From a virus: a stretch of DNA of 64,000 bases. The notes below the pieces were generated by a model, which ran no database searches, was not told the origin of the DNA, and saw only the letters and a list, made by a program, of their open reading frames with translations. A program made the position numbers and the translations under genes. Positions 27,225 through 30,029 of the stretch are shown here, one piece after another. Location of the stretch: positions 1-64,000 of the IMG/VR virus record IMGVR_UViG_3300025086_000015; one strand, given 5' to 3'. Each line of letters begins with the position of its first letter. The first letter of the stretch is position 1.

Positions 27225-27466
27225 AATTCGTCTTTAAATTTAATTTTAGCAAAGCCATTTTCTATTACTATCTCAGAAGTTCTAGATTGTTTATTAAATT
27301 CTGCAACAAACGGTTCTATATCTACTCTAGTACATAAGTATGATAAAAAAACTTGTAATTCTTTAGCTGCTTTTTTAACGTTAGAGATGCGATTATCTGC
27401 ATCTATCTTTACATCTATAAGAGCTTGAAAATCTTTGATGGTTATAGTAACAGTCCCTTCTACCAC
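27221..27466 (-). CDS. Hypothetical protein
   Basis: Overlapping ORF in operon. Confidence 0.6.
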   Translation of the reverse strand: MVEGTVTITIKDFQALIDVKIDADNRISNVKKAAKELQVFLSYLCTRVDIEPFVAEFNKQSRTSEIVIENGFAKIKFKDEL

Positions 27467-27729
27467 TTACCTAATATTTGATGTTCATTAATTAGTAAGT
27501 AATTTTTTCCGTCAATAGGAGCTTTTACAGCTTCTGTTCTAGGATCAATCATTACAGTATCGCCTTTTTTTACAAAATGACACTGATCTCCCGCAGCAAT
27601 TACTTTTAAAACATTAGATTTTTTAGCGTTAGACTTAGCCGTTTCTTCATCTAAGATGATTCCAGATTTTGTTTCAGTTACTATTGGATCAGGCACTACT
27701 ATCCAACTTCCGTGTGGTTTAAATTTCAT
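27460..27729 (-). CDS. groES: GroES-like co-chaperonin
   Basis: KPHGSWIVV, TKSGIIL mobile loop, VIAAG, VKKGDTV, YLLINEHQILG. Confidence 0.9.
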   Translation of the reverse strand: MKFKPHGSWIVVPDPIVTETKSGIILDEETAKSNAKKSNVLKVIAAGDQCHFVKKGDTVMIDPRTEAVKAPIDGKNYLLINEHQILGKW

Positions 27730-28580: not shown

Positions 28581-28700
28581 ATGAAAACACTACTTATATT
28601 ACTATTAGTAGCAGTATTCTTTGGCAGCTGCGCATCAACTTGCCAATATTCTAATAGTCATTCATATAAAATGAGAAATAATTGTGCAGCATATAGATAG
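28581..28700 (+). CDS. 39-aa lipoprotein (MKTLLILLLVAVFFGSCASTCQYSNSHSYKMRNNCAAYR)
   Basis: Type II signal peptide with FGS-C lipobox; below ORF-track cutoff. Confidence 0.7.
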   Translation: MKTLLILLLVAVFFGSCASTCQYSNSHSYKMRNNCAAYR

Positions 28701-28710
28701 TACAAAACAT

Positions 28711-28799
28711 AAATAACAAGGTTTATGATGTGAAATTCATCTCGTGGCCTCTTGACCAATCAGCCGTTAAATGCGGTAATAGATAGAGACTTGTTATTT
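28711..28799 (+). ncRNA. Structured RNA module A
   Basis: 10-bp closing stem AAATAACAAG/CTTGTTATTT enclosing three short hairpins. Confidence 0.5.
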
Positions 28800-28803
28800 T
28801 TAT

Positions 28804-28880
28804 TAGAAAGCATAAACATTAAATTGGGTATGAACATGGAGGTAGACACTATGCAGGTGTTCACATGTTCTAACTTTCTA
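28804..28880 (+). ncRNA. Structured RNA module B
   Basis: TAGAAAG/CTTTCTA, GAACATG/CATGTTC, GACAC/GTGTT; loop TATGC complementary to upstream GCATA. Confidence 0.5.
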
Positions 28881-28887
28881 TATACAT

Positions 28888-28963
28888 AAATAAAGAATAG
28901 TAGAACGTCTTGGATAACAACCTGCAGTGGTAAACCGTAAGGCATGTGGACTATTCTTTATTT
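28888..28963 (+). ncRNA. Structured RNA module C
   Basis: Perfect 14-bp closing stem AAATAAAGAATAGT/ACTATTCTTTATTT. Confidence 0.5.
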
Positions 28964-28964
28964 T

Positions 28965-29865
28965 AAAATACAGTTGTAAGGTATTTATAGATAAACCTTG
29001 TTTTCTAGATAAACAAAACTAATCTTGACACTGATTGACTTGCAAGCAATCACCTATCTGGTTTAAAGAAGAAACTTTGATTTCATTCTTTACCGTGGAT
29101 TTAAAATGGTAAACGTGTCCTAAAATATGGATGTGTGTCCATACTGATGATTCCAAAAGGATGAATTTAGAAAGATTTTGGGGCTTAACCCGATAAGTAT
29201 AGTAATATACTTAAAGACATAGTGTGGAATCTATGTTGCCAGCAATGGTCAATTTAAGCAAGCAGGATACTACACGGCACCAATGGACAAATGTCTGAGG
29301 GTATGTGTATCGCTTCTATTTTAGTTGGAGTGATGAGCTAGTGATAGCAATAGGAAATAACTGTAGATTTAGTTTTGAGTTAACTGTCGAGTTAATAAAG
29401 AGTATAAATCAGTATGATGGGCAATCTTAGGGAATAAGATATAACCTGAAATACCATAACGATGAAAAGTTATACTTGAGTAGTTTAGTATTTTGTCTCT
29501 CAAAAGGAGGCGAAACTAATGAATAACCGCTACTTGAACCATAAATAATAACAATATTTATACAACTAAAAAAGAACAAGTGTTGTTCCGTTAAACATTG
29601 AAAGATGACTAAGTCTGAACACGTATGCGTATGTGAATTCAGTTGCATTGATCCCTCAAGGTGATATGTATTTCAAGTGAAAGTCAGGTATGGGCCCTAG
29701 AACCCATCACCTCGTATGAGTAGTTTGTGAGTAAATGTTTATTGTTAAGAGTGGTTAGCTATACTAACCGTCATTACACAATACTATTGGAGACGATAGT
29801 GGATACGTTGCTAACTCATAAGGCAACAAAAGATGTGTACTATTAGCTATAATCTCAGGCTATAT
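28965..29865 (+). ncRNA. GOLLD-like giant structured RNA (~900 nt)
   Basis: No credible ORF; long-range TACAGTT(28969)/AACTGTA(29359); many hairpins; elements recalled from GOLLD RNAs (GAGTAG...CTCAAAAGG, hairpin-GTGGATA-stem-AAAGA, terminal TAGC-TATAATCTCAG-GCTA). Not confirmed with a covariance model. Confidence 0.7.
29118..29172 (+). ncRNA. Type III hammerhead ribozyme, variant core (U15.1-A16.1, AAA cleavage triplet)
   Basis: Stem III CTAAA/TTTAG; stem I TATGGA-TGTGTG-TCCATA; CTGATGA at 29144-29150; stem II T-TCC-AAAA-GGA-T; GAA at 29163-29165. Confidence 0.75.
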
Positions 29866-29891
29866 TTTATTAACCTTTTAATCTAAATACT

Positions 29892-30029
29892 ATGAACAAC
29901 AAGAAATTACTCAAGAATATAACTTGGGAGCTCAAAAGAGCTGAAAAATATTGTACAATATCAATGATACTAAATGTATTATTTATATTAATAATAGCAA
30001 TACAAGCAATTCAATTATATATTAACTAA
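29892..30029 (+). CDS. 45-aa membrane protein
   Basis: Hand-translated; C-terminal hydrophobic helix; CTAAATACT leader. Confidence 0.5.
   Translation: MNNKKLLKNITWELKRAEKYCTISMILNVLFILIIAIQAIQLYIN

Follow-up and report, generated by a model that had tools for sequence, protein, structure and literature searches.

The window, by which we mean the whole stretch of 64,000 bases analyzed here, forms the first part of the 75,869-base IMG/VR virus record IMGVR_UViG_3300025086_000015 (linear, estimated 87% complete). On its plus strand, a type-III hammerhead ribozyme lies directly in front of GOLLD, which ranks among the largest non-coding RNAs of bacteria and phages and builds a 14-subunit cage made of RNA only. 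GOLLD RNA was reportedly described by Weinberg et al. in 2009, and we know of no function for it. A structured leader, the hammerhead and the GOLLD RNA would follow one another as a single cassette (Table 1), and we think it probable, on balance, that self-processing by the hammerhead separates the leader RNA from GOLLD and sets the GOLLD 5' end.

In this model, a tailed marine phage would transcribe the non-coding cassette in front of its rightward replication and early genes, and the cargo of the ribozyme would be the GOLLD RNA instead of the usual downstream gene. Self-cleavage after A29125 would detach the leader, ending in a 2',3'-cyclic phosphate; the remaining GOLLD RNA, ~736 nt long, would start with a 5'-hydroxyl group, the chemistry of such ends being established for hammerheads. 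Ribozyme stems I and II would remain on the trimmed GOLLD, forming a 5' extension of 54 nt. The two pieces should part, as the sole pairing between them would be the 5-bp stem III. Cleavage in vivo, its rate and its purpose in defining the GOLLD 5' end are the parts of the model that we infer.

The hammerhead element

The element displays the type-III layout, with a CUGANGA...GAA core and three helices, stems I and II being closed and stem III open. Stem III pairs CUAAA (29120-24) with UUUAG (29166-70) in 5 bp, mostly A-U, and is followed by the cleavage nucleotide A29125, which is acceptable at position 17 as H (not G). Stem I (29126-32/29137-43) is capped by a GUGU loop, the CUGAUGA and GAA parts of the core occupy 29144-50 and 29163-65, and the intervening stem II counts 3 bp (29152-54/29159-61) below an AAAA loop, with a U.U mismatch at positions 10.1/11.1. 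The U-A at positions 15.1/16.1 reverses the canonical A-U; the pair A15.1-U16.1 expected of a type-III hammerhead is not found here.

A preliminary description of this DNA, made by a model from the sequence alone, had placed a plus-strand hammerhead fold at 29118-29172 with cleavage after A29125. The fold is confirmed with the slightly narrower boundaries of Table 1, and the cleavage site fits the geometry of the phage hammerhead family presented below. The Rfam comparison suggested there gave a full-length match to Hammerhead_3 (RF00008), at a score of 24.2 bits that lies under the cut-off of 48.5 (E value 2.9e-4 for the 76-kb genome), in an alignment that deletes the G-U-C and the A-C of the model around the cleavage site. 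A sensitive scan of 1351 bases (28600-29950) against all of Rfam listed no hammerhead, which is a filter effect, the single-family and short-stretch searches having matched; RF00163 and RF02276, the models of hammerhead types I and II, matched nothing in the window's own genome.

A phage hammerhead family

A 22-nt probe consisting of the core, stem II and GAA only, which leaves stems I and III and positions 15.1, 16.1 and 17 free, matched 52 contigs of viral and at least 120 of metagenome origin, with essentially none expected by chance. All family figures given hereafter cover the matches listed, which comprise at least 175 instances, 166 of them with enough flanking sequence, reducing to 122 distinct 97-mers. 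Of these, 119 parse as type-III hammerheads; stem I occurs in 60 and stem III in 69 distinct sequences around the identical core, and loop I is mostly GNGU. The full hammerhead shape, defined as a stem I that adjoins the core with 6 bp or more and an in-register stem III with 4 bp or more, is present in 117 of the 119 copies, versus 21 of 5950 controls with shuffled flanks (0.35%). The family fold is also close to the minimum free energy (MFE) structure in the 97-nt contexts, as testified by a median gap of 0.3 kcal/mol over the 119 copies, and at least 80% of the ribozyme pairs are found within the MFE structure in 67 of them.

This survey and its shuffled controls contradict the idea that the element is a chance look-alike, namely an arm of a GOLLD three-way junction and not a ribozyme. 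A score under the RF00008 gathering cut-off and a non-canonical 15.1/16.1 pair would fit such an origin. With a 22-nt core identical in more than 170 loci, stems I and III that covary around it, and no such element in the 49 other GOLLD records, we consider it extremely improbable. Two canonical copies of the family reach 26.2 and 34.8 bits in Rfam, so the 24.2 bits of the window are typical; since canonical copies too fall under the RF00008 cut-off, the sub-threshold score is a property of the family, for which this cut-off is unfit.

Positions 16.1/15.1 are U/A in 109 of the 119 copies and A/U in the 10 others, including that of the window, and these 10 U15.1-A16.1 copies carry 9 different stem III sequences. 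The copy at locus L097 (loci are denoted by L numbers) departs from that of the window inside the ribozyme at two positions only, 29123 and 29167, which form one base pair of stem III, so that the change is compensatory. A natural U15.1-A16.1 hammerhead self-cleaves, less efficiently, according to Perreault et al. (2011, PMC3088659). By these comparisons, the window element appears to be a genuine member of the phage hammerhead family, in a documented slow variant.

The family resembles the type-III hammerheads of phages and prophages (RF00008; Perreault et al. 2011, PMC3088659) in its CUGAUGA and GAA cores, its three stems with stem III open, its intergenic phage setting, the long-transcript processing proposed for them and the occurrence of the slower natural U15.1-A16.1 variant. 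It differs from them by the U.U at 10.1/11.1, the 3-bp stem II and the sub-cut-off scores, and the survey exposes it as a large marine-phage hammerhead family beneath the Rfam threshold. The cargo of the window copy sets it further apart, being a giant non-coding RNA and not a gene.

An open reading frame (ORF) of at least 40 codons with an ATG start begins at most 40 nt downstream of the ribozyme in 88 of 120 distinct copies (73%), as compared with 93 of 600 positions drawn at random from these loci. Hammerheads of phages are stated to flank genes, with a possible role in the processing of long transcripts (Perreault 2011, PMC3088659). The present family, which is widespread, is as a rule located shortly before a start codon, and by analogy it would cut long transcripts into units. 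No ORF lies within 400 nt in 9 copies, that of the window among them. A nearby ORF was found in 1 of 9 U15.1-A16.1 copies versus 87 of 111 canonical ones, with a Fisher p of about 9e-5 when related copies, such as L097 with L214 and L259 with L275, are treated as independent. This provides a lead, namely that U15.1-A16.1 copies seldom directly precede an ORF.

At three loci, a second and different type-III hammerhead (35-47.5 bits) was observed a few hundred bases from the probe copy (L229, 516-570; L230, 873-928; L241, 701-756). Clustered hammerheads of this kind are described in Perreault 2011 (PMC3088659).

The GOLLD RNA and its relatives

The GOLLD identity put forward in the preliminary description is borne out on the plus strand by the Rfam model search, RF02032 being a model of the conserved GOLLD 3' domain only (Table 1). 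Relatives were gathered in two ways, with a 3'-domain signature that yielded 49 phage contigs and a 5'-domain signature that yielded 42 stretches. When the segment 28700-29480 of the window was used as an nhmmer query, 14 loci aligned to the 5' half: 10 of them align only from about 29172-29181 on, and four (L067, L060, L084, and L006) from about 29055 too. The consensus fold of 15 sequences over 29176-29480 contains 77 pairs, 43 of which show compensatory changes. Its first helix, 29183-88/29254-59, has four covarying pairs out of six, and a further helix, formed by GCAG (29262-65) and CUGU (29361-64), closes a junction of covarying helices. Covariation had been named in the preliminary description as a check, and it thus holds both for the GOLLD 5' core and for the hammerhead family, where stems I and III vary around the identical core.

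Together, the covariation of the 5' core and the alignment starts in the relatives indicate that GOLLD proper extends over about 29180-29861. The ribozyme is located 5' of this conserved core and 3' of the leader, and the core begins only about 9 nt after hammerhead stem III. Over 28965-29865, the longest overlapping ORF encodes 73 amino acids on the minus strand, over the GOLLD 3' domain, in agreement with the earlier view of a stretch of ~900 nt lacking a credible ORF.

Judged from its sequence, the GOLLD of the window appears genuine: it shares with the known RNA (RF02032) a full-length 3' domain match, a separate and less conserved 5' domain, a phage origin and an A-rich interdomain linker. 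It differs by the lack of a nearby or linker tRNA and by the hammerhead and structured leader directly 5' of its core. Its shared 5' core, of ~296 nt, is also shorter than the 420-nt 5' region of GOLLD env-38, whose cage was seen as a 14-mer by cryo-electron microscopy (Kretsch 2025, PMC12286853).

The joined ribozyme-GOLLD sequence is present in an RNA library. The RNA evidence consists of contigs from marine metatranscriptome runs, which show no ends, strand or level. Run X1 contains one contig that is identical to the window over 29149-29794 and links both GOLLD domains with the 3' portion of the ribozyme (Table 1); X2, from the same sample, spans 29265-29786, and X3 and X4, from two other studies, span parts of 29200-29860. 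Within runs X1-X4, no RNA contig was found left of 29149 or right of 29860. The start of the X1 contig lies 23 nt after the predicted cut, an observation from one study and from contigs only, which we do not count as evidence.

Table 1. Coordinates of the features of the hammerhead-GOLLD cassette in the window
Feature	Position	Strand	Details
Leader, domain U (~93 nt)	29027..29119	+	Closing helix GACAC 29027-31 / GUGUC 29115-19
Type-III hammerhead, U15.1-A16.1 variant	29120..29170	+	RF00008 full-length match; predicted scissile bond A29125/U29126
Core and stem II (CUGAUGA, U.U, UCC-AAAA-GGA, GAA)	29144..29165	+	Exact 22-mer probe
Rival 10-bp helix	29117-26/29175-84	+	MFE structure of 29105-29185; would bury the cleavage site
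GOLLD 5' domain core	29180..29475	+	nhmmer matches to 14 loci; 15-sequence consensus fold
GOLLD 3' domain (RF02032)	29476..29861	+	222.4 bits (gathering 150); full model, 1-416 of 416
RNA contig X1 (647 nt)	29149..29794		100% identical; marine metatranscriptome; 3' part of the ribozyme joined to both GOLLD domains

Position of the ribozyme relative to the GOLLD fold

The preliminary description had drawn a different picture, with the ribozyme embedded in the GOLLD fold, within a domain that a long-range stem would close, and a nicked subunit that would stay paired and act as a switch in cage maturation or assembly. The stem relies on TACAGTT (28969-75) and AACTGTA (29359-65), which are indeed complementary over 7 nt. 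The conservation that such a stem calls for is not seen: all 14 relatives lack TACAGTT at the corresponding upstream site, the 3' arm is kept in 9 of 14, and the CUGU of this arm pairs with GCAG (29262-65) in the 15-sequence consensus fold. The four CUGU/GCAG pairs are invariant in all 15 sequences, and covariation neither proves nor disproves them. With its 5' arm unconserved and its 3' arm paired elsewhere in the consensus fold, we rejected the long-range stem as a chance complement; the ribozyme lies 5' of the core and not within a closed GOLLD domain.

Two further observations could accommodate an internal ribozyme. The leader is joined directly to the GOLLD core in L067, L060, L084, and L006, and could therefore belong to the 5' domain of this subfamily, and the interval 29027-29475, of 449 nt, is close in length to the 420-nt 5' region of env-38 (Kretsch 2025, PMC12286853). 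They are countered by L206, in which a 65-codon ORF parts leader and ribozyme from the GOLLD core, and by L097, L153, L270, and L121, in which leader and ribozyme precede a cargo other than GOLLD. A nicked subunit held together by base-pairing is itself unlikely, since only the 5-bp, mostly A-U stem III would join its pieces, and the 5' piece of ~160 nt foreseen earlier depends on a start at 28965 for which we found no evidence. We therefore view the internal arrangement as very unlikely.

Nor does the ribozyme occupy the place of a tRNA, as had been supposed. GOLLD-embedded tRNAs lie in linker J13/15 between the two domains (Kretsch 2025, PMC12286853; RNA Biol 2026 review, PMC12990946), and the corresponding A-rich linker of the window, at about 29538-29582 within the GOLLD 3' domain, is intact and contains no tRNA. 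No tRNA was detected by ARAGORN in the whole window. The GOLLDs with flanking or embedded tRNAs described in these two sources resemble the present case in that a small self-contained RNA module on the GOLLD transcript could define an end by processing; by analogy, flanking tRNAs may define GOLLD ends. The modules differ in position and in mechanism, the embedded tRNAs lying in J13/15 and needing RNase P and RNase Z, and the window ribozyme preceding the 5' domain and being predicted to act without an enzyme.

A structured leader before different cargos

The leader, which we call domain U, has copies at 12 other loci in about six other sequence contexts, and matched no Rfam family. Its internal helix contains three covarying pairs, both sides of which are changed in 8, 6, and 6 of 13 sequences, respectively. 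The closing helix, read from an anchored extraction, takes four complementary forms across lineages (GACAC/GUGUC, GACACU/AGUGUC, GACUCU/AGAGUC, and GCUCUC/GAGAGC); shuffled sequences often form helices of 5-6 bp by chance. The center of the domain reads UUGAAA-N-AUACUUUGA. A hairpin GUGUC-loop-GACAC, made of the same two arms as the closing helix in reversed order, was also observed at most 50 nt upstream of 22 of 120 distinct family copies (e.g. L118, L128, and L145).

Domain U is followed by a hammerhead of the phage family in L206, L153/L194, L270, L097/L214, and the L121 group, and by a plain hairpin of ~60 nt in the GOLLD relatives L067, L060, L084, and L006. The loci listed for domain U are L206, L153, L194, L270, L097, L214, L121, L133, L134, L164, L254, L067, L060, L084, and L006, and the cargos that it fronts differ, with GOLLD, ORFs and other small RNAs among them. 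The most informative locus is L206, which shares 92% identity with the window across 28979-29165 and 83% across 29181-29876. It contains, in this order, domain U, a canonical hammerhead, the 65-codon ORF and a complete GOLLD (214.9 bits). As domain U and hammerhead precede differing cargos, with the ORF intervening in L206, leader and ribozyme behave as one unit. A conserved structured leader RNA that accompanies the ribozyme before different cargos is new.

The 65-amino-acid ORF of L206 (267-464, plus strand) scores 23.1 bits against the C-terminal domain of ribosomal protein L7/L12, short of the threshold of 25.9. Ribosomes bind GOLLD in pull-downs, according to the discussion in Kretsch 2025 (PMC12286853). 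A likeness between the window junction and the start-codon region of L206 (AAGATTT..TGG) was considered as a trace of ORF loss and rejected, the match being too short.

At L097 (6080-6260), L214, and L121/L134, the hammerhead is followed by a structured, ORF-free stretch of ~150-170 nt that ends in a terminator-like hairpin and a U-run. The stretch of L097 contains a long-range pair, UAGUAGGC/GCCUACUA, and L097 gave no Rfam match at gathering. A 16-mer probe gave 23 loci, of which only L097 was related by nhmmer; the others were taken as chance matches.

Arguments against self-processing and rival explanations

Several points weigh against the self-processing that we propose. The first is thermodynamic: in the context of the window, a fold that preserves the hammerhead costs 5.8 kcal/mol relative to the MFE structure, owing to a rival 10-bp helix in which the cleavage site is buried (Table 1), and only 3 of the 119 copies, the window included, are as bad or worse. 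The second concerns the core. An at least 10-fold lower activity is cited for mutants at 15.1/16.1 (Perreault 2011, PMC3088659), and the U.U at 10.1/11.1 and the 3-bp stem II are found throughout a family whose activity is predicted only. From sequence, the rival fold and the slow core variant leave the activity of the window copy unproven. A sigma-70 scan gave 10 promoter-like sites versus 13.4 expected from shuffles, none of them on the plus strand near 29000.

The arrangement is also rare. Among the 172 other hammerhead-probe loci, GOLLD was found only at L206, and a descriptor scan of 50 loci found a hammerhead core upstream of GOLLD only in the window (0 matches in the antisense control). 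At an E value of at most 0.1, RF00008 matched none of the 49 other GOLLD records, in which there was one 13.7-bit match with an E value of 0.32; RF00163 matched none of the 49 either, and its controls likewise gave no match. A pattern for the direct junction had 0 matches in viral_contigs and 0 in genome_contigs. The direct fusion is thus rare in the collections searched, which limits the generality of any lesson drawn from it, and the juxtaposition may be a by-product of module shuffling or of ORF loss and not a selected feature.

This last possibility leads to the main rival of self-processing, in which the ribozyme would be a passenger or a decaying element, brought by recombination or left after the loss of a small ORF, that cuts poorly or never and has no role for GOLLD. 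Besides the rarity of the arrangement, the slow core, and the rival fold that makes the window a family outlier, it finds support in L067, L060, and L084, the GOLLD relatives nearest to the window. These loci, nearly free of mismatches over 29180-29480, have the plain ~60-nt hairpin at the ribozyme slot, which indicates that GOLLD works without a ribozyme. In addition, L206 retains the layout usual for the family, ribozyme then ORF. Decay is harder to reconcile with a core, a loop I and three stems that are all intact in the window, with the compensatory nature of the only two ribozyme differences from L097, and with the covarying stems that U15.1-A16.1 copies keep in their 9 stem III contexts, which argue for selection on this variant. 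We regard the passenger explanation as possible, though doubtful.

The rival helix could alternatively be given a function: it would block the ribozyme until folding of the GOLLD core engages G29183 and C29184 in its first helix, so that the cut reports correct folding. Such conditional cleavage would make use of the two nucleotides that the rival helix and the first GOLLD helix have in common, would give a meaning to the thermodynamic outlier position of the window, and would be in line with the suggestion that the slower phage variants might be regulated (Perreault 2011, PMC3088659). The overlap is of 2 nt only, however, nearest-neighbor predictions are weak in AU-rich RNA, and L206 and L097, whose downstream sequences differ, contain nothing that corresponds to the rival helix, which hence lacks comparative support. 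Conditional cleavage is, in our estimation, highly improbable.

Significance of the hammerhead-GOLLD arrangement

The claim in the preliminary description that the combination was undescribed holds within the literature searched, in which, judged by listings and abstracts, we found no printed description of it. The main text of Kretsch 2025 (PMC12286853) contains no word beginning with "cleav", and neither "hammerhead" nor "self-cleav" is present in the RNA Biol 2026 review (PMC12990946).

The placement of the hammerhead bears on how GOLLD is excised from phage transcripts. A ribozyme immediately ahead of GOLLD would allow its 5' end to be defined with no enzyme, and would offer structural studies a natural boundary for constructs. 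In a far-reaching version of the self-processing model, which we put forward as speculation and hold to be unlikely, in some phages the ribozyme, and not host RNase P and RNase Z acting on flanking tRNAs, would set the exact GOLLD 5' end, the slow core and the rival helix would form a folding checkpoint before cage assembly, and the released leader of ~93 nt would be a second, undescribed functional RNA before several cargos.

Genome setting and neighboring features

The G+C content of the window is 33%, and a blastn search against the phage collection gave no match. Genes for the terminase, the portal and the major head protein lie on the minus strand at 14-25 kb, and those for the DNA polymerase, a helicase, an exonuclease and an rIIA-like protein lie on the plus strand at 32-46 kb (PHROGs). 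The hammerhead-GOLLD cassette is contained in a gene-poor gap of roughly 2.1 kb between these leftward and rightward arms, and 30 nt separate its end from the first small rightward ORF, at 29892. The first leftward gene beside the non-coding gap encodes a Cpn10/GroES-like co-chaperonin (27460-27729, minus strand, 32.7 bits).

A candidate Bacteroidota-type -33/-7 promoter at 28998-29027, read by eye only, is at odds with the leader's closing helix. Just upstream of domain U, at 28976-29008, a hairpin AAGGU...ACCUU followed by GUUUUCU is kept in L153 and L206 and could be a weak terminator or a part of the promoter region. Further upstream, the segment 28803-28890 falls inside a run of putative stem-closed modules at 28711-28963 and is conserved at L067 (7542-7629, E value 1.3e-15), about 1.7 kb upstream of the GOLLD of that locus.

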